Assembly (NCBI GenBank): GCA_000146465.1
Contig: CP001942.1
Direction: 5' to 3' (one strand)
DNA: 64,000 bases
Shown: in pieces, positions 3,675 to 59,000 of the stretch
How positions within the stretch are numbered: the stretch's first letter is position 1
How the letters are laid out: every line of letters starts with the position of its first letter
Position numbers and translations under genes: made by a program
Notes under the pieces: model-generated
Seen by the model: the letters and a program-made list of their open reading frames with translations, nothing else
What the model was told of the DNA's origin: nothing
The model's database searches: none

Positions 3675-4802
3675 ATGTCAGAAATAGTTCAGGCACTTGT
3701 TATTGATATTGGATCTGGAGTTGTGAAATCAGGATTTGCAGGAGACGATGCACCAAGAGCTGTATTCCCTAGTATAGTGGGATTTCCCAGGCACAAGGGA
3801 GTGATGGTTGGAATGGGGCAGAAGGATGCATATGTTGGAGATGAGGCACAAACAAAGAGAGGAATCCTGCACATAAAATACCCCATTGAACATGGAATTG
3901 TAAGCAATTGGGATGATATGGAGAAGATATGGCACCATACTTTCTACAATGAACTAAGGGTTGCACCTGAGGAACACCCTGTGCTTCTTACCGAGGCTCC
4001 TCTGAACCCAAAGGCCAACAGAGAAAAGATAACCCAAATTATGTTTGAAACCTTCAATGTACCATCCTTTTATATCTCTATCCAGGCTGTTCTGTCTCTT
4101 TATGCAAGCGGAAGGACAACGGGAATAGTGTTCGATTCAGGAGATGGAGTGTCTCATGTTGTGCCCATCTACGAGGGATATTCTCTTCCTTATGCAATCA
4201 ACAGGATTGATCTTGCAGGCCGAGATCTTACAGAATACTTGCAGGTGATCCTTACCGAAGGAGGAAATACTTTTACGACAACAGCCGAAAGAGAAATTGT
4301 TAGGGACATCAAGGAGAAGCTCTGCTATGTGTCATTGAATTACGAAGAGGACATGAGGAACACCGAACACCTTGCTTCAATCACAAAGACCTACGAACTT
4401 CCCGATGGACAGGTGATCTCTATAGGTAACGAGAGGTTCCGAGCACCCGAACTATTGTTCCAGCCTAAGCTCCGTGGTCTTGAGCTGAAGGGAGTCCACC
4501 AGAACATCTACGATTCCATCATGAAATGTGATGTCGACATCAGAAAGGAGCTCTATGGAAATATTGTTCTTTCCGGCGGTACTACCATGTATCCAGGACT
4601 TGCTGAGAGAATCCTTAACGAAATCAAGGCACTAGCACCTCCAGTAATTAAGATTGGGGTAGTAGCACCCCCAGAGAGGAAATATAGCGTATGGATTGGA
4701 GGATCTATCCTGGCATCTCTTTCAACCTTCCAACAGATGTGGGTTTCTAAGGCTGAGTACCAGGAGCATGGGCCATCCATCGTTCATAGGAAGTGCTTCT
4801 AA
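3675..4802 (+). CDS. ACT1: Actin
   Basis: 375-aa protein colinear with eukaryotic actins ([46 protein letters not shown]-like C-terminus [17 protein letters not shown]). Confidence 0.97.
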
Positions 4803-8368: not shown

Positions 8369-9118
8369 TTATCCCTCAAAGCTTAAAACCTTTATGGAGT
8401 CTTCTGTAAGTAGAAACAGACTGTTCTCAAGTGCAACATACTGCCTTATTTCCCCCACAGGGAACACACTCTTGAAAGACCAGTCGTTACGCGACACCTC
8501 AACGCAGTTCTTCATCACCTTGATCTTTTGGGATTTGCATTCTATTGTGCTTTTTTCTTTCTTCCACAAAAAGTTTTCATCAACAAGCTGAAGCTTACTG
8601 TTGTAAACCCTTGACTCTCCGTTTCTGTATACACATGAAACCATACAATCCCCCATCCGTGCATCGACCATCCAATCTGCACACATGTAGCACATTATCT
8701 CCTTCAGCTTCATATCATATTTCTTTTCGTTGTTCTTGACAAGATGCAGCAGTATGTTGTAGAACAGTAACCTACACCTTCGGCTTATAGCTTTCTTCTT
8801 CACTAGAAATATCAAGAGATGGAAGTCCATGCTTTTTATTCTTGTGCATCTGAACTTCTCGTCATACTTGTATACTTTGATAGAATCCCCTCTGTGCAGC
8901 AAGAGATAACCTTCAATCGCGTAGAACTCGTTTCCCACAAGTTCTATAGAGAACACTCGGACTTTCTCTCCAGATAGATCGTATCGATTTAACGAAAAGA
9001 AAGGCTCTTGGGTTTTCAACCCTAGACTGTGTGTCTCCGACAGAAGATATTCTTTATATTCCTTGAAAACAGCTCTATCCACCAAATCCTCCATTGATTC
9101 TGCTACATGCTCCACCAA
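8369..9118 (-). CDS. Hypothetical protein
   Basis: 249-aa ORF with coding-like composition. No recognisable motif. Confidence 0.5.
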   Translation of the reverse strand: MVEHVAESMEDLVDRAVFKEYKEYLLSETHSLGLKTQEPFFSLNRYDLSGEKVRVFSIELVGNEFYAIEGYLLLHRGDSIKVYKYDEKFRCTRIKSMDFHLLIFLVKKKAISRRCRLLFYNILLHLVKNNEKKYDMKLKEIMCYMCADWMVDARMGDCMVSCVYRNGESRVYNSKLQLVDENFLWKKEKSTIECKSQKIKVMKNCVEVSRNDWSFKSVFPVGEIRQYVALENSLFLLTEDSIKVLSFEG

Positions 9119-12097: not shown

Positions 12098-12952
12098 ATG
12101 AAGGAACTTATCGATGTTTTGTACTACGACCACATTCTGTACAAACTAGCGAACCTGTACACATTAGAAGACACTAGCAATGAAATAGCTCAGTACCAAA
12201 AGATTGCACAGAAGCTTCTGGTGAAGCTCCGCTCAGACAAGGTGGTTTTTGATGCTGAAATAGGACTGAAATTTGCATATATAAAGCTTTTCGATCTTCA
12301 CTTGTCCTTTCCAAAGTGCACAGGCAGACTCCATGTTTCTTGTTGCCAGAAGCACTACTGGCAATTTCTTAGTACCTCCTTCGACTACCTTACAAAAATA
12401 ATGGCAGAATATTCTTCTCTGAAGGAATGTAATACATTCAACCGCCTTCTCTACAGTGTAGTGGAAATGGCTTTTGCCAGCTCTCCTACGTTGGATCAGT
12501 TTGAAGCCCTAAATAGAGACGAGGGCTCTAGCCCGATGAAGCCGTATCTTACTCAGCGTGGAATTAAGGCCGAAACCGAGGAGGACTTTAGTTCCGAGAA
12601 GGAGAAGCTTCTTAAGACCCTTAAAATCAAGCCCAAGGACGAGAACGATCTTTTCAACAAGACATTTCAATGCATAATGGACGAGCTCAAGAAGACATTT
12701 CTGTCCTTCGATGTTCCCCTTCTCGAGTTCTTTGCCACTAGCGAAGTGATCCAACTAAAAGAGCTTTATCCCAATGCATTTGAAGGCTTCGAAGGTATCC
12801 CTGTATCGTCAAAGAGTTACAAGGAGGAAATATTGAAGGAGTACCTAGATTTAAGGAATTCTCTCAGCAAGACTAGAAGTGCATTCATAAATCCCAAAAA
12901 CAAAGGGGAAAAAGTAGTCTGGGGATCCGATGCAAATCCCTCCGAGAGGTAA
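12098..12952 (+). CDS. Hypothetical protein
   Basis: 284-aa ORF. No recognisable domain. Confidence 0.5.
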   Translation: MKELIDVLYYDHILYKLANLYTLEDTSNEIAQYQKIAQKLLVKLRSDKVVFDAEIGLKFAYIKLFDLHLSFPKCTGRLHVSCCQKHYWQFLSTSFDYLTKIMAEYSSLKECNTFNRLLYSVVEMAFASSPTLDQFEALNRDEGSSPMKPYLTQRGIKAETEEDFSSEKEKLLKTLKIKPKDENDLFNKTFQCIMDELKKTFLSFDVPLLEFFATSEVIQLKELYPNAFEGFEGIPVSSKSYKEEILKEYLDLRNSLSKTRSAFINPKNKGEKVVWGSDANPSER

Positions 12953-13266
12953 ACATCCATTCTCATTTATTGTAGAAAGAATGTGATTATTCCTAAAAGG
13001 AATTATTGTTTAAGTTATTCTCTAAAATTCATTAGTAAACCTGATACTATCTTTTTCCTTTGTATTTCCGTCTCAAACTTTCATTTCCTAATGACTGAAG
13101 ACATTTCAAATTAATGTCACTCACTTGTAACTCCCGAGCCCAGGCTTATTTCTCCATTTGTTTGTATTAGAAAGCTTTTTAATCTCCAGGCATGTCAATA
13201 AAATTAAATTAAGGATTTGTTTACATCAATCCAAAAGCTTAAATTCTTTCAGGAACTTACCCCTTA

Positions 13267-13488
13267 ATGAAAGGAATACAGAAAGTTTTCTCTCTCATGT
13301 TTTTGATCTTCGGTCTTGTGTACGCAGCAGAGGAAACCAACAAGTCGTCTAATAACGGAAATGGCGGTTCCTCTTCAGACTCTCAGAAAGAGGAGAGTAA
13401 GGAAAAGAGCACTGAAAGCTCATCCCTAAAGTTGGGAACAAGTCTGCTTGGACTTGCATCCATCCTTGCCATCTGCCTGGCCAAATAA
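13267..13488 (+). CDS. Candidate GPI-anchored Ser-rich surface peptide (73 aa)
   Basis: N-terminal signal MKGIQKVFSLMFLIFGLVYA. Central Ser/Asn/Gly-rich acidic spacer. C-terminal small-residue omega region (GTS) followed by the hydrophobic tail LLGLASILAICLAK. Confidence 0.45.
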   Translation: MKGIQKVFSLMFLIFGLVYAAEETNKSSNNGNGGSSSDSQKEESKEKSTESSSLKLGTSLLGLASILAICLAK

Positions 13489-13559
13489 ACCTTGCTTTTG
13501 GACGTGTAATTTATTTATTTTTTAAATATACAGAGCATATAAAAATACACCTTTATTTT

Positions 13560-15407
13560 TTAAAACCTTGCTCCTATCCTCATCTCCAGCTTGGATATTG
13601 CTTCATCCTTCCTTCTAAGTTTGTCGGCCATTGCTGAATAAAGGCTTTTTATTCTTTCTTCGTTCTTACGGCACTCGTTGAATCTTTTTTCCAGCATCAT
13701 GTTGCTTGCCTTAAGAGCCTTATTCTCCTTTCCTTTCTTCTCGAGGTATTCCTTGCAGACCTCTAGATCTTTTCTAGCAATGCTGAACTCCTTGGTGAAG
13801 TCTTCCAGGAACTTCATTGTTCTTCTGTGCATCACATCTTTGTTGTTCTCGGCAAAACCCATGGCCTCGTTGGTCTCCTTGTCCATCACACGGATCTTCC
13901 TAACCAGATCCTTGTATGAGATCTTGAACCTTCTTACCATCTCGTCAACCGGAACCACTGCGTTGATTCCAAGAGTTTTCAGAAACTTTCTACTGTCTTC
14001 TGTAACTGCAACAATCTTTCTATACTCCTCCTCTTTGCTTTTGAGCTCTTTGAGTTCAAGTCGTAATGTATTTATCTCTTCTTCTGCTTTGTCTTCTAGT
14101 CCTTTCTCTCCAAGAATCTTTCTTGCCAAGCTTATCTTGGAATCTATGCTACGAGCCATTCCTTCAATCTCACCCAATTTTTTGTCACATTCCCGCCCTT
14201 TTTCTTGCAAAAGGTCCTTCAGAAACATCTCAAGCTCTCGAGATCTCTCCAGATCCGAGGTAAAGCCCAAGCATCTTTTCCGAAGTTCCTCTACCTCCTC
14301 TAAGACCACTGCTTTTTCTTTTTTTTCTTTCTCCAGCTCTGCCTTAATCTTGTAGACTTCCAAGCCTCCATATCCATCCTGGGACACTTTATATGACAGC
14401 GCCCTTTTCTCATTCTCACAAACCTCAAGTCTTTTCTTTAGCTCTCCTCGAGTGGCTTTCAAGTTCTCAACTTCTCTTTTTAGTTCTTCGTTCTTTAGTG
14501 CTAATTCTTGTTTGTCTCTGGTTTCTCGCATATAGTTCTCTCCCATCTCCTTCAGGTACAATTCATTCGACTGTCTTTGCCTGTAAATTTCCTCATATTC
14601 CTTTTCCATACTTTTGTAGTGCTCTCGAATCTGGCTTATCTCTGCTTCTTTGAGATTCATCTTTTCTTCAAAAGACCTCACAATACTTTGAAGTTGAGAA
14701 ATCTTGTTGTTGTATTCATTTCTTTCTCGATCTCGTTCATACATTATCTGGTCTTTTTCTTTATTGCTATTCAGAAGAGCATTCTTGTAGGACATCAGTT
14801 CCTTTTCAATTTGGACCCTTTCTTCCTTTTCATATGCCATCTTTTCAATCAAGTTCTTCTGCTCATCAATCGCACTCTTACTTCTGTTGAAACACTCTCC
14901 CAGCATCCCATTCTCCTCTCTCAGCTTGGTATTGATTCCATTGACACTCTCTAGATGCTTGAGAAGCCTGTTGTTTTCCTCTTCAAGCATCGATATCCTA
15001 TTAAGATGTTCCTGCAAACCATTCTTCAGCCGGTCCTCCGCATCCTCTTTCTCCATCCTCATCTTCTTGATCATTTCGTCCATTCCCTCAATTCTTTTGC
15101 TGAGCTCCTCGTTCTCTCCCTCAAGAATGTCTATCGATCTCTTACTATCAAGAAGAAGCTTCTGAATGTCTTCCTGGATGTTGACCCCCGAACTTGCTTT
15201 ATAATGAGAAAGTTGATGCTTGATCTCAAAGTTTTCGTTTCGAAGCTCCTCGATCTCCCTCTCATAATCCTTAACTGTCTTAATCCTCTGCAAAGGATTG
15301 AACTGAAGCGAAAATGAGTGTTCTTCCATCACACAGTAAGGGTTACCACCCTCAACAAAAATCCTGGGAATTCCAAAAGAGGAGAGACCGTCCTTTACAA
15401 ATATCAC
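13560..15407 (-). CDS. Long coiled-coil protein (615 aa), function unknown
   Basis: Continuous heptad-rich E/K/L composition over about 500 residues. The many antisense ORFs in this interval are low-complexity artefacts of this gene. Confidence 0.6.
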   Translation of the reverse strand: MIFVKDGLSSFGIPRIFVEGGNPYCVMEEHSFSLQFNPLQRIKTVKDYEREIEELRNENFEIKHQLSHYKASSGVNIQEDIQKLLLDSKRSIDILEGENEELSKRIEGMDEMIKKMRMEKEDAEDRLKNGLQEHLNRISMLEEENNRLLKHLESVNGINTKLREENGMLGECFNRSKSAIDEQKNLIEKMAYEKEERVQIEKELMSYKNALLNSNKEKDQIMYERDRERNEYNNKISQLQSIVRSFEEKMNLKEAEISQIREHYKSMEKEYEEIYRQRQSNELYLKEMGENYMRETRDKQELALKNEELKREVENLKATRGELKKRLEVCENEKRALSYKVSQDGYGGLEVYKIKAELEKEKKEKAVVLEEVEELRKRCLGFTSDLERSRELEMFLKDLLQEKGRECDKKLGEIEGMARSIDSKISLARKILGEKGLEDKAEEEINTLRLELKELKSKEEEYRKIVAVTEDSRKFLKTLGINAVVPVDEMVRRFKISYKDLVRKIRVMDKETNEAMGFAENNKDVMHRRTMKFLEDFTKEFSIARKDLEVCKEYLEKKGKENKALKASNMMLEKRFNECRKNEERIKSLYSAMADKLRRKDEAISKLEMRIGARF

Positions 15408-22812: not shown

Positions 22813-24186
22813 ATGGAAGATGTGGAGAACATAAGGACTTCATATAAAGTGCTGAAATGTAAGTGTGTCTACCTGAAAAGCTATCTGGAGCATATTGTTA
22901 CTGTGGCGAAAAGATCCTCCGACCTTCTTTTTCGCGCTCTTCAGATTCCAAGAGATATTGAATGGAACGACCTACTACTTACGCATTGCATAGAAATGAG
23001 CGAGAGGCAAAGGGCTGTGTTTGATGAGGCAGGGGTATTTTATGGAGAAACCTTGTTTAAGGAGCTTGATGGGCTGATTGCGACTATAGTCAATGATATG
23101 AAGATGATTGACGAGGAGGTAAAGGCCATTTCTGAGAGGCCAGCAGAAGGCCTGAAGGAACTGAGGATAGCCCGAAACAGACACATGGAGGCTTGGACAC
23201 ATGGAAAGCATGACCCGTGGTTGACAGAGCTCGGCCTGAAAAAGGCAGTTAAGAAGGTTCTCCTTATGGATGACGAGGCGAACAATGTGATGTATGGAAA
23301 GGTTGGGGGATTTAATATGTCCTTACAGAGTGCAGCAGACAGGTTTAAAGAAACCCTCCTGAGTCTTATGAGGATTCAGAAGCAGAAGTACCAAAAGCTT
23401 CGGGACTCTGTAGATATGGAAACCAAGAGATGTGAGGAGATGGATAGGTTTTTTGACACCATCTCCGAATCACCAAAAGAGGTTAGAGGGGAAGCAAAGA
23501 AGGACGAGAAACTCAAAGAGAAGGTTGATGCCTCGTTTGAGACATTTGTAGAGGAGATAAGCAAGGAGCTGTCAGGAAAGGGTATAACAGTTAGAAAGAA
23601 TCTGGAAATTGTAAAGTCCTCTATATGCAAAGTGAAAAAGGGATATACAGGGGATTGGATAGTGGCATATCTAGGGGTCACGTCCACGGGATATGCACAC
23701 TTCTTTGATGTCTCGGGGTTGTTGAACGAAGCAGAAGGTCTCAAGAACATCATTAATAATTTAAACAATAGCACGAGCAAAGGCTTTATATCCATGTTTG
23801 ATGGAAGCAAGCCCAGAAAGGAATCTGGGGAGGACAGAATGATTTTTGAGATAAATACCAGGATCGGCGAGACGGTCGAGACTCTTTCAAGTCCGGTGGT
23901 TTCGATTAATCTAAATGATAACACCTACGAGCTCGATAGAGAGAGAAAACAAATCTCGGTAAGTAGTAAGCACCAGAACGGGTTTGCAAGTTTCTTTGGG
24001 GTATGTGAGGTGAAGATCAAGCTCTTCTCTCTTTCAAATGCAATAGAGATATTCCATACACTCAAAAATAGGAACAAACTTGAGGAAAGTATAGACAACT
24101 TTGCCGAAGGTCCCAGGAAAGAAGTCAATGAAGGAGTTGGGCTTAAGGTTCTGCTACAAGAGGAGAATCCCTGGGTTGAAGGATGA
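22813..24186 (+). CDS. Hypothetical protein, possibly a helical (BAR-like) N-terminal domain plus a C-terminal PH-like domain
   Basis: N-terminal 250 aa predicted helical. C-terminal GDWIVAYLGV...FFDV...ELDRERKQISV...FGVCEVKIKLFS resembles a PH fold. Speculative. Confidence 0.45.
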   Translation: MEDVENIRTSYKVLKCKCVYLKSYLEHIVTVAKRSSDLLFRALQIPRDIEWNDLLLTHCIEMSERQRAVFDEAGVFYGETLFKELDGLIATIVNDMKMIDEEVKAISERPAEGLKELRIARNRHMEAWTHGKHDPWLTELGLKKAVKKVLLMDDEANNVMYGKVGGFNMSLQSAADRFKETLLSLMRIQKQKYQKLRDSVDMETKRCEEMDRFFDTISESPKEVRGEAKKDEKLKEKVDASFETFVEEISKELSGKGITVRKNLEIVKSSICKVKKGYTGDWIVAYLGVTSTGYAHFFDVSGLLNEAEGLKNIINNLNNSTSKGFISMFDGSKPRKESGEDRMIFEINTRIGETVETLSSPVVSINLNDNTYELDRERKQISVSSKHQNGFASFFGVCEVKIKLFSLSNAIEIFHTLKNRNKLEESIDNFAEGPRKEVNEGVGLKVLLQEENPWVEG

Positions 24187-24465: not shown

Positions 24466-26058
24466 ATGGACAACGTTTTAATATCTGATGAGAACCTTAA
24501 AAAACCTTCAAAGCCTGCCTACTACGGAACAGCCGGATACAGATCAAAAACATCTGATCTAAACAATATCCTGTGCCGAGGATCCCTGATAGCCTACTTG
24601 CGATCGACAACGTTTGCAGGAAAGATCATTGGGGTGATGATTACAGCAAGCCACAACCCTGTGGAGTACAACGGGATCAAGATAATTGATCATAACGGAG
24701 ACATGCTTGACGAGACATGGGAAGAGTATAGCGATAGAATTGTGAATTGTGATGATGACAAACTTCCTCGCGAGATGAAAAGGATTCTAAGATCCTGCAG
24801 TAACCAAAGCGAGCTTGGGGAGGGGGTGCAGGGACATGTAGTTTTGGGCAGAGACACCAGAGACAGTGGGAAAAAACTATGCGATAACATAAGGTCTGTG
24901 CTAAGCAAACTGAATTGCACTGTGGACGATTATGGAGTAGTGACAACCCCTGAACTTCATTTTCTTGTAAGGAGGTGCAATGTAGAGAACAAAGTGGTTG
25001 ACAAGACAGAGTATCTAAAGAACATTGTCTCTAACTTCTCGAGGCTGTCTTCTTTGACAAAAGGGAACTTCAAGACAATGGTAGATACTGCAAATGGAGT
25101 GGCAGGAATGAAACTCAAGGAACTGGACGAAATGCTGGAGGGTAGGCTGAACTATGGGATTCTGAACGATCCAAAGGGAATTCTGAATCTGGACTGTGGA
25201 GCAGACTTTGTTAAAACAAAAAAGATGGCACCAAAGTTGGAGGTGTTTAATTCGAGCGAGTTCTCCCCACCATCAAATGGGATATGTGCCTCGTTTGATG
25301 GAGATGTGGATAGACTCATATTCTTCACAGGACCCAAGAACACAGAGATATTTGATGGGGACTCCCAGGCAGTCTTCTTAGCTCTTTACATAAGATCCCT
25401 TCTTGATAAGATCGGATCACGTCTTAGCATTGGAGTAGTGCTCTCCTACTACTCAAACAATGCGGCTGTTGATGCTCTTCCTCCGAAGTTGTTCAAGGTT
25501 GTGATGGCCCAAACAGGAGTCAAGAACTTTGTGAGTGCAGCAAGGAACTTCGACATTGGGGTGTATTTTGAGCCCAACGGGCACGGAAGTGTGTGCTTTT
25601 CGCAGGCCTGCATAGACGAAATAGAAAGGGGAAGCAGCAAACATCATACAATTCTCAAGTCCTTGGTGAATCTATTTGATCCATGCATTGGAGATGCACT
25701 GGGCAACTTTATGATATTCAAGGCGCTTATGGCTGATGCAGATGACCTTAGGAAGTTCCGGGAAAATCCCAGTAGACTCCTCACTGTTAAGATAGAGGAC
25801 AAGAACAGTATTAAGGTTGACCATAAGAATCAGGTTATTGAGCCGAAAGAACTCCAGGACAAGATTGACGAGGAAGCTTTGAGCCTTGGAGGGAGGTCGT
25901 TTGTCAGACCCTCGGGAACTGAAGATGTTGTAAGAGTATATGCCGAGTGCCCGACAGAGGCTGATGCAGATCTTCTTTGCCTAAAGGTTGCACAGCATGT
26001 CTATGATATGTGCAGAGGTGTTGGAGACCATCCAGAAATCGACTACACAAATAAATAA
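24466..26058 (+). CDS. AGM1: Phosphoacetylglucosamine mutase (AGM1/PGM3), UDP-GlcNAc/chitin precursor pathway
   Basis: GTAGYR and MITASHNPVEYNGIKI active-site loop. C-terminal FVRPSGTEDVVRVYAE phosphohexomutase motif. Confidence 0.85.
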   Translation: MDNVLISDENLKKPSKPAYYGTAGYRSKTSDLNNILCRGSLIAYLRSTTFAGKIIGVMITASHNPVEYNGIKIIDHNGDMLDETWEEYSDRIVNCDDDKLPREMKRILRSCSNQSELGEGVQGHVVLGRDTRDSGKKLCDNIRSVLSKLNCTVDDYGVVTTPELHFLVRRCNVENKVVDKTEYLKNIVSNFSRLSSLTKGNFKTMVDTANGVAGMKLKELDEMLEGRLNYGILNDPKGILNLDCGADFVKTKKMAPKLEVFNSSEFSPPSNGICASFDGDVDRLIFFTGPKNTEIFDGDSQAVFLALYIRSLLDKIGSRLSIGVVLSYYSNNAAVDALPPKLFKVVMAQTGVKNFVSAARNFDIGVYFEPNGHGSVCFSQACIDEIERGSSKHHTILKSLVNLFDPCIGDALGNFMIFKALMADADDLRKFRENPSRLLTVKIEDKNSIKVDHKNQVIEPKELQDKIDEEALSLGGRSFVRPSGTEDVVRVYAECPTEADADLLCLKVAQHVYDMCRGVGDHPEIDYTNK

Positions 26059-36443: not shown

Positions 36444-36525
36444 GAAGGTGTGGCCGAGTGGTTATGGCGTTGGTCTAGAAAACCAATGGGCACCGCCCTC
36501 ACAGGTTCGAATCCTGTCACCTTCG
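36444..36525 (+). tRNA. tRNA-Ser (anticodon AGA)
   Basis: Cloverleaf readable by eye. Acceptor GAAGGTG/CACCTTC. D-arm GCCGAGTGGTTATGGC. Anticodon stem TTGGT/ACCAA with loop CTAGAAA. Long variable arm GGGCACCGCCCTC. T-arm ACAGG-TTCGAAT-CCTGT. Discriminator G. Confidence 0.8.
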
Positions 36526-36526
36526 C

Positions 36527-36532
36527 TTTTTT
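36527..36532 (+). terminator. RNA polymerase III T6 terminator of the tRNA-Ser gene
   Basis: TTTTTT run starts 2 nt after the discriminator base and lies 14 nt before the next ATG. Confidence 0.5.
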
Positions 36533-36545
36533 GTTGCAAATCCCT

Positions 36546-37862
36546 ATGAAATCCCAGTGTCTTCAGCCCATGAACTGCCAAATATGCACAGGAGCCATGG
36601 ACATCTTTGCAACATACACCTGTGGCCACCAGCTATGCATGACATGCTCTGCAAGACTTGTGTTTCTATATATGCAACCAAACTGTCCTTTGTGCAGAAG
36701 GCCTTCCAAGTCTGTTGTTTTTTCATCACTCCTAACAACTGGAAAGTCTTCCAAACGGCCATGGAAGGGCAGGAAGGTTCCGGTAGATGTCTTCTACGAA
36801 GGAGACTATGCGAGAGAGAAGATGGAGGACCTTCTGTCCAACAAGTGCCAAAAGTGCTACGCCAAGCTTGGAACTTTGATGGAGCTCAAGAAACACTACA
36901 CACAGCATGGACTTGTTCTTTGCTTTGAATGCATCAAAAACAGAAAGGACTTCTGGAATGAAATCAAACTCTATAGAAGTGACACAATCCGAGACCACAA
37001 GAATGGAAGTCTTCGGGAAGAAGGATTTGAAGGACATGTGTTCTGCATTCATTGTAAAATCTATCTATTTGATTCCGACGACGCAAAGAGACACTGTAAC
37101 CTCAAGCACGAGCTGTGCCATGTTTGTGACATGACAGGAACAAAATATCAGTACTATAATGGCTTTAAGGACTTGGAAACACACTACAAAAGTGCCCATT
37201 ACTGCTGCAGCTTCCAGACATGCCAGACAAACAAGTGCTATGTATTTCCCTATCAAACAGAGCTTTTCGAGCATCTCACCAGGTTCCATGGAGTGGATAT
37301 CAGACTGCTGGAGATTCCAATGGCTGGGAAATGCAATGTTCCTGTGATGAACCCGTTCAAGAGGAGACGGCAACTTCCCCAGGTGAGTGTGGTAGATCCA
37401 AGTGGAAGAGAAGTCCGATCTCAGCTCCCTCCAGGCCCCAATGTATCTCAAAGGATGGATACTTCCAATACTGGGTCTGGGCTTCCTGGATACTTGGATA
37501 GAGCCATTTTAGAGGAAGAAAGAAGAAAACAGCAGAGGCGTAGAATGGCTATAGACCGCATATGCAAGGGGGCTGCGGATGAGGTAGAGGAAATTGTAAA
37601 CGGGTTTCTAGAGGGCTCCATGGATGTCAAGGAAGCATTCAACAAAGTGTCGGGAACAGTTGGTGATGCATTAGCACTTAAACTATTTGAGTCGGGGCAC
37701 TTTGGGCCTAAACAGAGTGTGGTAGAGGGTAGCATAAAGGCCTTGAGGAAGGAAGTCATGTTTCCAAAGTTCACCTCGGAGGAGCCTACAAGATATAAAG
37801 AGCCCGAGAAGAAAAAGAACCCTGGATTCAGAGTCATAGATCTACACCAAAGAAAGCAATAA
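36546..37862 (+). CDS. RING-type E3 ligase with multiple C2H2 fingers, Hel2/ZNF598-like (ribosome quality control)
   Basis: N-terminal RING CQICTGAMDIFATYTCGHQLCMTCSARLVFLYMQPNCPLCR followed by several C2H2/CxxC-HxxxH repeats. Start placed after the tRNA. Confidence 0.55.
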   Translation: MKSQCLQPMNCQICTGAMDIFATYTCGHQLCMTCSARLVFLYMQPNCPLCRRPSKSVVFSSLLTTGKSSKRPWKGRKVPVDVFYEGDYAREKMEDLLSNKCQKCYAKLGTLMELKKHYTQHGLVLCFECIKNRKDFWNEIKLYRSDTIRDHKNGSLREEGFEGHVFCIHCKIYLFDSDDAKRHCNLKHELCHVCDMTGTKYQYYNGFKDLETHYKSAHYCCSFQTCQTNKCYVFPYQTELFEHLTRFHGVDIRLLEIPMAGKCNVPVMNPFKRRRQLPQVSVVDPSGREVRSQLPPGPNVSQRMDTSNTGSGLPGYLDRAILEEERRKQQRRRMAIDRICKGAADEVEEIVNGFLEGSMDVKEAFNKVSGTVGDALALKLFESGHFGPKQSVVEGSIKALRKEVMFPKFTSEEPTRYKEPEKKKNPGFRVIDLHQRKQ

Positions 37863-54763: not shown

Positions 54764-56038
54764 CTAAAGATGCTTAAGACTTATCAACTTCGGTGAGCTA
54801 CCAGATATACAGATGCACAAGTATGACCCACTTGTAGAAAATAAAAGTTTGAAGACACTTCCGTCCACCTTGTATCTGTAAACTTCTCTGCATCTGGAAT
54901 CACTAAGTATTACCTCTCCGTCCAAAGAGCCACTTGCAATCAGATATGAGGAGCAGTCAACTGCTAAAACTTTGTCTTTGTGTTCTAACCTGCAGACAGG
55001 TGTTGACTTCTCAATGTCCCACAACTTGACAAGCCTATCAGATCCACATGTCACAATCTTGTCATTTGTCCATTTATGGTCATTGACACCACCCTCGTGG
55101 GCATTTATCTTACTTCCCTCCATAGACCCGACATCCCACACCCCAAAGGTACCGTCATGGGATGATGTTGATAGCATCGACTCATTATACTCCATTCCAC
55201 TGATTTGGCCTTTGTGGGTGCCAATTCGAGACACCTTCGACTCGCTAACATCCACAAAAGAAACAGAAAAGTCACTTAGGCTGCATCCAACTTCATTTTC
55301 CCCCATCCATACAACATCCTCTACCTCACATTCTGAGACATTCACCTCTGTAATTCCATTGTTCATCATAACAATGCGTCCATCTCTTCCAGAAGAAAGA
55401 ATTCCTCTTCCTCGTTGCCTTACTCTTGTGACGCTCTTGCTATGGCACGCATAGCTTCTTGTCCTTCCGCTTGACACATTAACAGTTATTACTTCTCCAC
55501 CTTCGTTCCCAACAACTAGCTCATCGTCGTTCCAGGATAGCGATGTCAGATTCTTCATCTCTCTTTTCCATCGAAGACCTTCACTCCCAATCCCAAGAAC
55601 TTCCCCAGCTGCAGTGTAAATCCCCAGGGAGTCTCTATTCCAGCAGGAAAGGAGCCCAACCCCCATCCTGTCAAGACTTATTTCTTCGACATCAACCGAC
55701 ATGGTTCCCTTTTCTTCAGAGATATGATCTTCTCTGGAACTTGGAGGTTCTTTCTTCAGAAAGCCACATACATGCTCCTCCGATAGACAGAATCTGGTTT
55801 CACAGGCAACCACTGAATTTCCTTGAAGATGCTTAGTTCCATACAGATACTGCAGTCCTTTTCCAACAAGAGATATCAGACTATGGGGTAAAGGTTTGTC
55901 GCTGGGGGCTGCCTCGTTCTTAAATGTGAAAAGAGTGTATATGTATCCTTCATCCTCAAGATACTTGTAAACTAGCTGGTTTATCTCGTCCCTCGACATT
56001 TCGATCATTGTTCTTAAACTTCTATGGGCTGGCATCAA
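54764..56038 (-). CDS. LisH + WD40 protein of the TBL1/Sif2/Ebi family (co-repressor complex subunit)
   Basis: N-terminal LisH EINQLVYKYLEDEGYIYTLFTFKNEA...LISLVGKGLQYL compares with TBL1 [26 protein letters not shown]...LISIIQKGLQYV. It is followed by about 7 WD repeats. Confidence 0.65.
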   Translation of the reverse strand: MMPAHRSLRTMIEMSRDEINQLVYKYLEDEGYIYTLFTFKNEAAPSDKPLPHSLISLVGKGLQYLYGTKHLQGNSVVACETRFCLSEEHVCGFLKKEPPSSREDHISEEKGTMSVDVEEISLDRMGVGLLSCWNRDSLGIYTAAGEVLGIGSEGLRWKREMKNLTSLSWNDDELVVGNEGGEVITVNVSSGRTRSYACHSKSVTRVRQRGRGILSSGRDGRIVMMNNGITEVNVSECEVEDVVWMGENEVGCSLSDFSVSFVDVSESKVSRIGTHKGQISGMEYNESMLSTSSHDGTFGVWDVGSMEGSKINAHEGGVNDHKWTNDKIVTCGSDRLVKLWDIEKSTPVCRLEHKDKVLAVDCSSYLIASGSLDGEVILSDSRCREVYRYKVDGSVFKLLFSTSGSYLCICISGSSPKLISLKHL

Positions 56039-59000
56039 GTGTTATCATTTAAGCGTTGTAATGGACTCAAATGGTTACCCCGGAGAATGCTGATAGGCAA
56101 GTTGGAGGAGTTTCCATCGCTCAAAAACCCTTCTGGACAGGAAGGAAATCCACTCAGACGCAAGAAGAGGAAGCTTATTCTGTATTCCCTGTACATCTTC
56201 TCTGTAATTGCAATGTGCCGTCTGACCAAGACATTCTATTGGCTTTACACTTTAGACCTTAGTAAGTTGCAACTCAACAAAGTGGTTTATGACACAAAGA
56301 CATGGAAGAAAATAGAGGTGGGAATTTCGCTTGAGAACTCGGAGTCCCCGATTCATGTGAAGTTTACAGATGTATATGCCAATCTATTCAGTATATCACC
56401 AGATGGAAGCGAGAATCCTTTACTTTCACTGAGGATTCCAATGGCAAACATTGCAAAGCACAAGAATATCCTGTTTAATGGAGACATATACATAGAAAAC
56501 TTCAATAGGAGGAATGTGATTGAATCAAGATTTTCGGTTCACTTTGGAATCAGAATGGATGCACGGATGTACCCCCGGTTGTGCTTTATAAGATTTCCTT
56601 TTCGTAACTCGCAATCCTTCTCCCTGGGGAGCTCTGTCTCAAGTCCTGGGAAAGAGGTTGTGCTTAAACAGGTGTATGCAGAATCGAGAGATGGAATGCT
56701 TCTGCTAGAGTGTGAGATAGACAACAAAAAATTCAATGTCCCGAAGTTTGTTGCGATCCGGAGCCGTGGGGTTGTGATTAACTTTGGAGGGAAGGGCAAC
56801 CCAAGGATTGTAAACGTCGGACCTGTGGAGGTGGATGGATCCATATTCCTGACTCCCTTGATTATAAGGATCAGCATCACCCCTGAATGGGGAGAAGAGC
56901 TTAAGGAAAATCTCATCAAGGGACTTAATGGAGAAGAGGTAAGCATCAAGGTGAAGGGCTTCTACTTTAAGGGAGACGACGAAAACCCGTCGGAAAAATG
57001 GATTGGCCTCGGACTTAGTATTGGGTTCAATACCAGAAGCTTTCGAAGCCATGACATAGCGTTTAAGAACAGGAAGAAGAAATGCCCTATTCTTAAGAAG
57101 CCATTGGTAATTCTAAAGAACGGCATATTGGAAGACCTTCCAGGGTTCCGTGCATTTATTCGAAAGGAAATCTTTCCGTTCATCGAGAGCCACAGCATCC
57201 TAGTGATGCGCTCGAACATGTTCTTCGGGGACATCTATTTCAACAAATTCCTGATTGGAAGGATCAAAATCTTCATTGATAACGGAGACGAGTATTTTGT
57301 GGTGACATGCATGCTTTCTGAATTTGATTCTGAGGAGCTTCTGAAGGCCTTCAGATCGTCGAATGAAAAGGAAGTGAAGATTGTCTTTGGTTCTTCCAAC
57401 GGCCTGATGGTTCTTGTAAATGACATTGAGCTTGTGTGGAATCTATCTAAAGGACTGTTGTATCTTTTTTACAAGAACCACGAGTACAACATTTTGTCCT
57501 CCCAAAAGGATTTGAATGTAATTGATGTCTTACATACTGTTTCAAGTGGTTTATCATCCCTCCGGATCGATACCCTGGCCAGGTTTTCTCCAGGGAGGAA
57601 GAGCTCCTTTACAACCTTCCAACTGAAGCTTGTTGGATTCGACTTTTCCTTTTCCAATGCGGGAATAAATGCGAAATTCTCTGTGGAGGACACCAACATA
57701 ATATACCAGAACAGTGAAGAGCCGTTGAACAGAAGGATCTTTGGGGAGTTTTTGATGCATACAAACATCAGCGACTCACTGAAAAGCATACTTGAGAAGT
57801 TAGAACACAACGGAGACTCTTCGGAGAAGGAAGAGAAGGAGGATGGCAGAAGACTCCTCCTCAAATACAACAAGGACAAGCCTTGCAAAATAAGAAAGCA
57901 TTTTTTCTCTGTGCATCTCCTGGAGGATGAAACACCCCAGTACTCTGGAGTAGTCATACGAAATGTTATTAGAATACCATGCGACACAAGGTTCAATCTG
58001 ACAGCCTACACAAAGAACCTAAACCTGAAGAGGGCCAAGCCAGTTGTTGTAAACTTTGGGTATACCAAGATCTGCTATTTGTTGATGAAAGGTGGATCAC
58101 GGATAGAGCTTGGGAATGGGATAGACTTTTCGGTGTCTTTTTCGAACCTACATGACCTCGTAGCGTTAGGAGCGAATAATGTAGCTGTTGTTTGTGATGA
58201 GGGGGATTATGTAGCAAGAGCAATCAAGGACATACTTGCTTGGATCACAAGAAGAGACGATGAGGATGGTGTTAAAAAGCAGATATGTCCTAAAGACATG
58301 GTGTTTAAGTCTAAGTTAAAGAGGTTGAAGGACTGGGCTCTGAGCACCGGGCGTGTATATGAAGGAATCACAGAGATATCCATTCCCATTGAGATGTTCA
58401 ATTCTACAAACATTGAATTCGATATTCCAAACGTTGGATTTATGGTCTTGGAAGAGGAGAACAAGAGCACACCCTATAGGGGGTTTGGGTCCATAGAAAT
58501 CTTGCCCAGCATCCAATACATGTTTGAGGGCCATATATACAAATCTTTTGGAGTGCTATACAGATTTTCCGAGATTTCCTCAAACAATACTTTGTTAAAC
58601 ATGCATCTTATTGTCGAGGATAAGATATACGAATCGGAGATAATAAATTACGACTCATACAGAAGAGTGATGGGGGATGTAAGGGATGAGATGTTCAAAA
58701 AGGATGACAAGAAGGAAAAGAAGGGAATGTCTGTTGAGATCTCCAGCTCAACCAACTTTAGGATACAGAGGATTGGGAAGACTATCTCTTCCGAGGGAGA
58801 CACCTGGTTTGTGAAGATTGTTAACAATAATCTGAGAGACTTCTTGTTTTTGGGGATTCCTAATCTTCTTTTGAAGTCTTTCTATGGGGTTATACCGTCA
58901 GGAATAAGGTTTGAGATTGACATGGACAAAAATGCCATGGGGCTTTACATAGGGTCACGAGAAACAAATCCTTGGGAAATCCAAGGAGAGAGGAAGGAAG

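Follow-up and report, generated by a model that had tools for sequence, protein, structure and literature searches.

This locus raises the question of whether a very short open reading frame (ORF) encodes a surface peptide of an intracellular parasite and, if so, how such a peptide would be held at the membrane. The ORF occupies positions 13267-13488 of a 64,000 nt stretch of contig CP001942.1 (GenBank assembly GCA_000146465.1), which as a whole is referred to as the window. An earlier reading of the letters (the original prediction) had proposed a 73 aa serine-rich surface peptide carrying a glycosylphosphatidylinositol (GPI) anchor. Our data show that the ORF is a real gene, Eint_010435. For its product we consider the balance to be even for a lipid (GPI)-anchored, fast-evolving and charged surface peptide of ~31 residues, a reading derived from sequence in which the anchor itself is predicted rather than proven.

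Identity and genomic setting

The ORF starts with an ATG at 13267 and ends with a TAA at 13486-13488 on the plus strand. The frame of 73 codons encodes MKGIQKVFSLMFLIFGLVYAAEETNKSSNNGNGGSSSDSQKEESKEKSTESSSLKLGTSLLGLASILAICLAK, whereby coordinates and translation of the original prediction were reproduced exactly. The coding sequence (13267..13488, +, 73 codons plus TAA) yields a protein 100% identical to the NCBI entry Eint_010435 of Encephalitozoon intestinalis ATCC 50506, which is annotated as "uncharacterized protein". Owing to this identity the window represents chromosome I of E. intestinalis, and the microsporidian origin that had been implied is confirmed. The E. cuniculi orthologue is ECU01_0555.

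A gene of this kind had been expected to be easily missed by automated annotation. This does not hold for the present genome, in which Eint_010435 is annotated, but it does for two other assemblies, one of E. cuniculi and one of O. colligata, in which the orthologue is uncalled. ECU01_0555 was presumably introduced by the re-annotation of Peyretaillade et al. 2012 (Nat Commun). In Belkorchia et al. 2015 the gene lies outside the 32 small coding sequences validated by rapid amplification of cDNA ends and is listed in S1 Table only, as an added annotation. Full-text literature searches for the locus tags of the gene returned no mention, and proteomic or immunolocalisation data were not found in them either. 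The gene model is already public; a functional reading or a discussion of its expression was not found in the literature searched.

The upstream neighbour encodes 284 aa (12098-12952, +) and leaves a gap of 314 bp to the ORF. The downstream neighbour is a convergent coiled-coil gene (13560-15329, -) at a distance of 71 bp. Both spacers had been described as unusually long. Given the median intergenic distance of 81.5 bp in the window (n = 66), the upstream spacer indeed ranks within the top four by length, whereas the downstream spacer is ordinary. No minus-strand ORF of ≥ 40 aa exists across positions 13000-13560. Antisense ORFs at the loci of E. cuniculi, E. romaleae, Ordospora and the public run L006 were discarded, as they have no counterpart in the window and hence are not conserved. 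An Rfam scan of the whole window gave no RNA family near the ORF, its single match being a tRNA. The gene model of the coiled-coil neighbour itself varies: the mechanical ORF comprises 615 aa from a GTG (13560-15407, -), NCBI assemblies give 589 aa from an ATG at 15329 and one Logan gene call gives 615 aa.

The reading frame is conserved in Encephalitozoon and Ordospora

Syntenic loci were gathered using the upstream 284 aa neighbour as a handle. The same pair of genes flanks an intact ORF with this three-part layout in E. hellem (two strains, 72 aa), E. cuniculi (71-72 aa), E. romaleae (66 aa), an Encephalitozoon-like lineage (81 aa), Ordospora pajunii (82 aa) and O. colligata (88 aa). In three further relatives the ORF (86 aa, 99 aa and a copy truncated by the contig end) comes immediately after this upstream gene, whereby the downstream genes are different or lie beyond the coverage of the contig. 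Taken together, syntenic orthologues are intact in 10 further genomes or assemblies of Encephalitozoon, Ordospora and relatives. Conservation in related microsporidia had been suggested as a check and is thus found across both genera. Amino acid identity to the E. intestinalis protein amounts to 49-61% within the genus and 21-27% for Ordospora, compared with 78-81% and 54-56%, respectively, for the neighbouring gene.

An exhaustive HMMER profile search against 1.84 billion representative proteins resulted in 8 matches, all of them belonging to this small family, and contributed two extra members of 83 and 90 aa. Word-indexed searches, using either the single sequence or a 9-sequence profile, gave nothing beyond the clade-specific family. 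The most distant relative recovered is the JGI metagenome contig L014, whose neighbour gene is 43% identical. Here a 303 aa PRK-family protein follows the 278 aa neighbour in place of the small ORF (3001-4846 of L014). No ORF with the three-part architecture is present in this 6.5 kb locus, and synteny breaks there. Possibly the family is confined to the clade of Encephalitozoon and Ordospora; a relocation of the gene would be an alternative.

Public sequencing runs hold at least four Encephalitozoon/Ordospora-like lineages, namely L006 (Logan SRR21633403), L012 (SRR21023579), L013 (SRR29713749) and L015 (DRR353006). Gene order is kept in all four upstream through the small ORF, with a neighbour protein 50-73% identical to that of E. 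intestinalis. L013 additionally contains a second small ORF of 90 aa (4376-4648, +), located 86 bp after the orthologue. Its N-terminus is signal-like and its body is acidic and rich in Ser and Asp, but an apolar tail is missing; it has a TATAAATA box of its own as well as a CCC motif. Either a secreted paralogue or a small gene without relation to the family is conceivable.

The length of the ORF alone is weak evidence for a gene, since shuffling the 607 bp spacer produces an ATG-ORF of ≥ 73 aa in 4.4% of cases. Architecture is far more discriminating. We used a filter asking for a basic N-terminus, a hydrophobic core, a middle without any hydrophobic window and apolar last 18 residues with ≤ 1 charge. 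The window has 201 ATG-ORFs of 45-150 aa, and only the ORF in question passes. None passes among 2,380 ORFs from shuffled windows, nor in 5,000 spacer shuffles. Applied to 13 complete syntenic loci of other genomes, the filter selects one ORF each, always the orthologue.

The substitution pattern points in the same direction. The frame is open in every genome examined and contains many insertions and deletions (indels), all of which are multiples of three. Among five Encephalitozoon species the ratio of non-synonymous to synonymous substitution rates (dN/dS, Nei-Gojobori) is 0.13-0.53 for the whole gene and 0.16-0.55 for the signal peptide. The last 20 codons are the most constrained. E. hellem and E. 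cuniculi differ here by 15 synonymous and 4 non-synonymous changes, the two Ordospora species by 4 and 0, and dN/dS of the tail is 0.04-0.26 where computable. The many synonymous changes rule out a constraint at the nucleotide level for the tail, e.g. by an overlapping RNA element. We conclude that Eint_010435 is a real gene.

Conserved ends enclose a variable middle

The C-terminal layout was compared over 11 family members and the N-terminal cleavage site over 9 aligned orthologues. Residues 1-20 (13267..13326, +) form a predicted signal peptide consisting of MKGIQK, an apolar core of 12-14 residues and VYA, with putative cleavage after Ala20. By rule-based criteria it has the features of a cleavable signal for the endoplasmic reticulum (ER), i.e. 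a basic n-region (K2, K6), a short apolar core and the V-Y-A end. The transition from VYA to AEE agrees with the -3/-1 rule, and Ala20 is invariant in 9/9 orthologues.

Residues 21-51 (13327..13419, +) represent the predicted mature peptide, a charged and disordered spacer of low complexity. Its length and sequence vary between species with a net charge of -1 to -3 throughout. The original prediction described this spacer as Ser-rich and probably O-glycosylated. In E. intestinalis it is Ser-rich indeed: residues 21-57 comprise 13 Ser/Thr, 4 Asn and 4 Gly at a net charge of -2. In contrast, the spacers of E. hellem and E. cuniculi contain only 4 and 6 Ser/Thr, respectively, and are rich in Lys, Asp, Glu, Asn and Gly. 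As Ser-richness is specific to E. intestinalis, dense O-glycosylation is not a conserved property of the family. The conserved properties of the spacer are charge and disorder.

The spacer leads into Ser51-Ser52-Ser53 (13417..13425, +), small residues that make up a canonical candidate omega triplet, the presumed attachment site of a GPI anchor. A small triplet (SSS, SSA, SAS, GSS, NGA, STA or GTG) is located 20-23 residues from the C-terminus in 9/11 members. Residues 52-73 (13420..13485, +) constitute a putative C-terminal signal or anchor with the short spacer LKLGT(S), the apolar tail SLLGLASILAICLA and a final Lys. The uncharged C-terminal run of E. intestinalis is 17 residues long and is followed by this one Lys. 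It ranges from 15 to 24 residues across the family, with 0-1 residue beyond it in 10/11 members; P0022 is the exception with three residues (SRF). The residue following the run is Lys in Encephalitozoon, and none follows in Ordospora, L012, L013 and P0023. In the five Encephalitozoon species the segment TSLLGLxAILAICLAK is nearly invariant despite saturated synonymous change. The three-part layout of signal peptide, small triplet and terminal apolar tail is thus as had been proposed, and it is the ends that are conserved.

An AlphaFold2 model based on the alignment consists of two terminal helices (residues 3-27 and 53-71) and a disordered middle (predicted local distance difference test, pLDDT, < 50 for residues 30-53; mean pLDDT 62). 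No folded domain is seen in this model. Pfam scans of the protein, and of nine orthologues at E-values up to 1, did not reveal any significant family. The weak matches (YxzE, Mucin, ETRAMP and frog-skin peptide precursors) were rejected, as they reflect signal peptide and composition and not homology.

The middle changes quickly even within species. The two E. hellem strains show 8 amino acid differences in 72 residues (11%). For eight neighbouring genes of the same strains the values are 1.0-4.4%, pooled 2.3% (Fisher p = 4e-4). Non-synonymous to synonymous changes are 9.5:1.5 versus 54:79 in the neighbours (p ~0.001-0.009 depending on rounding). The spacer accounts for six of the differences and the signal peptide for two, whereas the tail is unchanged. 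E. cuniculi strains differ in the spacer only, by one substitution and one single-residue indel. For the E. hellem spacer alone the ratio of non-synonymous to synonymous polymorphism (pN/pS) is ~0.85, based on small counts; relaxed constraint and diversifying selection hence fit equally well.

The E. cuniculi orthologue is among the most highly expressed genes

Transcript levels were taken from Additional file 1 of Grisdale et al. 2013, given as fragments per kilobase per million (FPKM) for 24, 48 and 72 h after infection, 24 h being the earliest time sampled. ECU01_0555 reaches 4,298.59, 6,167.52 and 6,037.58 FPKM, while the neighbours ECU01_0550 and ECU01_0560 remain at ~190-230 and 137-149 FPKM, respectively (Grisdale et al. 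2013). In the same dataset actin shows 6,265, 4,570 and 4,479 FPKM and EF-1alpha 7,209, 4,412 and 4,411 FPKM. The spore-wall genes are at 8,505, 22,259 and 22,703 FPKM (SWP1), 9,119, 24,265 and 23,714 FPKM (EnP1) and 5,148, 14,157 and 14,515 FPKM (EnP2/SWP3). The polar-tube genes PTP1 and PTP2 start at ~650 FPKM and rise to ~2,500-2,700 FPKM at 48 h and ~2,700-2,900 FPKM at 72 h (Grisdale et al. 2013).

According to Grisdale et al. 2013, EF-1alpha and actin rank in the top 20 by expression, a set that includes "ten" hypothetical genes. With a mean of 5,501 FPKM, ECU01_0555 exceeds both and is therefore one of these ten. It is already high at 24 h, and its later induction is weaker than that of the spore-wall and polar-tube genes: the rise after 24 h is ~1.4-fold, in contrast to ~2.7-fold for SWP1, EnP1 and EnP2 and ~4-fold for PTP1 and PTP2. 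This pattern points to expression in proliferative stages plus sporogony. Eint_010435 is probably highly expressed in the same way. The Logan contig L011, which carries the identical protein, was discounted as transcript evidence because it spans genes on both strands. The original prediction was to be given up if transcription or conservation were missing; instead, the orthologue is strongly transcribed and the family is conserved.

GPI anchor or retained helix

The layout suggests that the conserved ends act as targeting signals for a product that consists of the variable middle. Residues 1-20 would send the precursor into the ER before being removed by cleavage behind Ala20. At the other end, ~22 residues comprising SSS, a short spacer and 14-17 apolar residues without cytosolic extension would serve as GPI-attachment signal, whereby the tail would be swapped for a glycolipid at about Ser51. 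The product would be a disordered, charged peptide of ~31 residues displayed on the outside of the parasite plasma membrane. It could be placed on the surface of the meront or sporont and possibly later in the inner spore wall. Its exact sequence would then be under little constraint or under diversifying pressure. Signal-peptide cleavage, GPI attachment, the surface location and any coat function are steps that we infer. GPI-anchored coat proteins of parasites, e.g. the mucins of Trypanosoma cruzi, are known for conserved ends around a variable centre, an analogy that may apply here.

A number of observations weigh against a GPI anchor. The call is made by rule-of-thumb criteria applied to the sequence. 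Five Encephalitozoon proteins end with a Lys, which is unusual for a GPI signal, and both Ordospora proteins, among the 11 members compared, are devoid of a canonical omega triplet at the expected distance. Moreover, the Thr-x3-Gly spacing of the tail is kept even in Ordospora. Since the tail is conserved beyond mere hydrophobicity, a retained interacting helix would be the more natural explanation for it. Regarding the pathway, only Edhazardia and Nematocida are reported to have kept GPI10 among the Microsporidia (Desjardins et al. 2015), so that Encephalitozoon may not make a standard GPI. The same study implies, without itemising, that the pathway is mostly present in Encephalitozoon (Desjardins et al. 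2015). A Pfam scan of the ~66 ORFs in the 64 kb window detected no GPI-pathway enzyme; enzymes of precursor supply in the window are a phosphoacetylglucosamine mutase (24466-26058) and a CDP-alcohol phosphatidyltransferase (59881-60450). A literature search for listings of Encephalitozoon GPI8, GAA1 or PIG-A yielded nothing usable. Finally, the expression data are mRNA levels and stem from the E. cuniculi orthologue rather than from E. intestinalis.

The strongest competitor is a type I single-pass micro-protein, in which the signal peptide is cleaved and the C-terminal segment is kept as a short transmembrane helix. Function would then reside in the conserved helix, which might e.g. pack against another membrane protein, and the charged ectodomain would be an appendage under loose constraint. 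Strong purifying selection on the tail (dN/dS as given above) is in line with this, as is the small-x3-small spacing that is typical of helix packing (Thr58 and Gly62; Ala64, Ala68 and Ala72). The uncharged run extends to 22-24 residues in E. cuniculi and P0023, and the terminal Lys of Encephalitozoon could serve as a minimal stop-transfer charge. The missing omega site in Ordospora and the reported loss of GPI10 in most Microsporidia fit as well. In addition, a review lists EnP2/SWP3, the classic "GPI-predicted" Encephalitozoon protein, as plain "Transmembrane". However, the run mostly comprises 15-18 residues rich in Gly, Ser, Ala and Thr and thus is short and marginally hydrophobic for a stable span, and 6/11 members end exactly with it. 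In Ordospora a Lys-Lys would be luminal with nothing on the cytosolic side, contrary to the positive-inside rule. Furthermore, a small triplet at a fixed distance of 20-23 residues in 9/11 members would be pointless for a plain membrane anchor. We consider this explanation a serious alternative, yet less probable than the lipid anchor.

Alternatively, the signal could remain uncleaved as a signal anchor and form a hairpin with the second helix, leaving the charged loop lumenal or exterior. Such a protein might belong to a membrane complex of the ER, Golgi or plasma membrane, as a small subunit with a structural or regulatory role. Both hydrophobic ends are conserved around a variable loop, and the two helices in the AlphaFold2 model, joined by a disordered linker, would match this topology. 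Against it, the N-terminal core has only 12-14 residues, with basic residues before it and an invariant Ala behind it, and position -3 is small or aliphatic; this resembles a cleaved signal more than a signal anchor of ~20 residues. Both segments are too short to span a membrane comfortably, and no known Pfam family of small membrane proteins matches. A hairpin is therefore rather improbable to us.

That the locus merely holds a chance ORF or a non-coding or regulatory RNA, with an RNA-seq signal caused by read-through from a neighbour, might be argued from the shortness of the ORF (equalled in 4.4% of the spacer shuffles), from the lack of proteomic evidence and from the transcription overrun documented in E. 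cuniculi, but a chance ORF is effectively excluded by the substitution pattern, with a frame intact everywhere despite indels and synonymous changes far outnumbering non-synonymous ones at both ends; the architecture is absent from 2,380 shuffled ORFs yet matched once in each of 13 syntenic loci, the window offers neither an antisense ORF of ≥ 40 aa nor an Rfam match at this place, and read-through cannot account for the ECU01_0555 signal, as the FPKM values of the neighbours are 20-40 times lower.

Comparison with known surface proteins

Signal peptides combined with a C-terminal hydrophobic segment or predicted GPI site are likewise present in EnP2/SWP3 (E. cuniculi ECU01_1270, 221 aa, endospore), AlocSWP2 and NcSWP8. 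EnP2/SWP3 is encoded on the same chromosome of E. cuniculi as ECU01_0555 and also shows very high mRNA levels. The profile search against 1.84 billion representatives revealed no sequence relationship to EnP2/SWP3 or other spore-wall proteins. Compared with EnP2/SWP3, Eint_010435 is three times smaller and, judged by ECU01_0555, expressed earlier; it has no heparin-binding motif and contains Cys only within the terminal hydrophobic segments.

The mucin-like glycoproteins of T. cruzi and the procyclins of T. brucei are abundant, surface-exposed proteins with a conserved signal peptide and GPI signal around a variable hydrophilic centre. The likeness to Eint_010435 lies in the conserved ends flanking a variable, hydrophilic centre of low complexity. 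In contrast to the T. cruzi mucins, which form a large multigene family, the gene is single-copy. Its centre is rich in Lys, Asp, Glu and Asn, whereas mucins and procyclins are uniformly rich in Thr or Glu-Pro. The mucin-like family PF01456 gave sub-threshold matches (E = 0.04) in 2/9 orthologues; the E. intestinalis protein had no match, and none of the nine orthologues scanned exceeded the Pfam gathering score.

Precursors of < 100 aa with hardly more than a short hydrophilic peptide between signal peptide and GPI signal are also known from Saccharomyces cerevisiae (Cwp2 with 92 aa, Ccw12) and mammals (CD52, CD24), and Microsporidia are relatives of fungi. By analogy, Eint_010435 resembles them as a tiny precursor with the same three parts; homology and Pfam searches showed no sequence similarity to any of the four. 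Yeast Cwp2 and Ccw12 are cross-linked to beta-1,6-glucan, a polymer not known from Microsporidia. CD52 and CD24 carry N- and O-glycans, whereas the Eint_010435 family shows no evident conserved sites for glycosylation.

The ETRAMPs of Plasmodium (PF09716), abundant membrane proteins where parasite and vacuole meet, are small and highly expressed intracellularly as well; they have a signal peptide, one hydrophobic anchor and a charged region of low complexity. In ETRAMPs a charged C-terminal domain comes after the internal transmembrane domain, whereas the apolar segment of Eint_010435 is located at the extreme C-terminus. PF09716 matched 2/9 orthologues below threshold (E = 0.06), with none for E. 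intestinalis and none above the gathering score.

Transcription and polyadenylation signals

The upstream spacer was evaluated using an alignment of five Encephalitozoon intergenic sequences. Conservation is far higher over the 140 bp before the ATG than over the ~150 bp that follow the upstream gene, and the conserved stretch before the ATG holds three AAATT-type motifs. A distal conserved block GACATTTCAAATTAA (13100..13114, +) contains the first of them. The next block (13164..13213, +) comprises near-invariant alignment columns and ends with AAAATTAAATTAA (13200-13212), the second AAATT-type motif; a related element, TATTAAATTATAA, is present in both Ordospora species. A proximal promoter-like block (13224..13246, +) includes GCTTAAATT (13237-13245), ~22-30 nt before the ATG. 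GCTTAAATT is identical in five Encephalitozoon and two Ordospora sequences and unique within the window. L012, L013 and L015 carry TATAAATA instead at an unchanged distance. Just before the start codon a CCC-like motif is found (13260..13263, +), with CCC located ≤ 10 nt from the ATG in 7/7 species. The CCC motif precedes 40/67 ORFs of the window, but its combination with an AAATTT-like signal only 12/67.

In E. cuniculi an AAATTT-like signal is tied to highly expressed genes, and a CCC-like motif is a general start-proximal signal of Encephalitozoon, in which 5' untranslated regions are < 7 nt (Peyretaillade et al. 2009, PMC2803860). By sequence, the AAATT-type box and the CCC motif of Eint_010435 match these published signals. 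AAUAAA is the documented polyadenylation signal of E. cuniculi (PMC2803860). A corresponding AATAAA (13484-13489) overlaps the stop codon and is part of a predicted polyadenylation region (13484..13503, +), in which TAAACCTTGCTTTTG is conserved in the alignment. AATAAA on or directly after the stop codon is seen in every orthologous locus whose 3' end is present.

Further genes in the window

The tRNA at 36444-36525 (+) is the sole Rfam match in the window, with 62 bits. The first ATG of the adjoining RING/ZNF598-like ORF (36486-37862) falls within it, and the start of this ORF is hence probably a later ATG.

A 348 aa ORF (40790-41836, -) has a signal-like N-terminus, 25 cysteines and basic clusters and no Pfam match. 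It equals the published E. intestinalis spore-wall adhesin EnP1 in length (EF539266; E. cuniculi ECU01_0820), and the chromosome position fits. Length and position alone make it a candidate for EnP1. Another ORF of 142 aa (1749-2177, +) exhibits a signal-peptide-like N-terminus and a very acidic C-terminus ending with EGEGEKEEEKEEL, also with no Pfam match; its final KEEL resembles an ER-retention signal of the KDEL/HDEL type. The 457 aa protein encoded at 22813-24186 (+) matches the whole of Pfam DUF5098 (E = 7.6e-150). The longest ORF of the window (56024-59794, +, 1,256 aa) has no Pfam family at E ≤ 1e-4. Two genes of the trehalose pathway are located ≤ 6 kb apart at 38624-40003 (-) and 45941-48097 (+), representing a glycosyltransferase family 20 (GT20) protein of the trehalose-6-phosphate synthase type and a fusion of GT20 and trehalose-phosphatase.

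Implications for Encephalitozoon biology

Encephalitozoon species are opportunistic human pathogens whose characterised surface proteins are components of the spore wall and polar tube, and the surface molecules of the intracellular stages are almost unknown. The Eint_010435 family combines mRNA at the level of actin (in E. cuniculi) and clade-wide conservation with the hallmarks of a membrane-anchored, exposed peptide, the exposed part of which changes fast. Being short, rich in Lys and Glu and, if true, lipid-modified, the product could escape proteomics. The peptide could serve as antigen or strain marker. It also offers a concrete substrate for asking whether highly reduced parasites, reported to be without GPI10, still make GPI anchors. 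If the product were a plain small membrane protein, Eint_010435 would still be an uncharacterised, top-expressed and lineage-specific gene.

A more far-reaching idea, to which we give little credence at present, is that the peptide is the main lipid-anchored coat of intracellular Encephalitozoon, a counterpart of the procyclins and mucins attached by a GPI10-less and possibly non-canonical GPI. If so, one of the top 20 mRNAs would encode a charged and rapidly diversifying peptide of ~30 residues as cover of the meront or sporont plasma membrane, and the peptide would mediate or shield the tight contact with the membrane of the parasitophorous vacuole.

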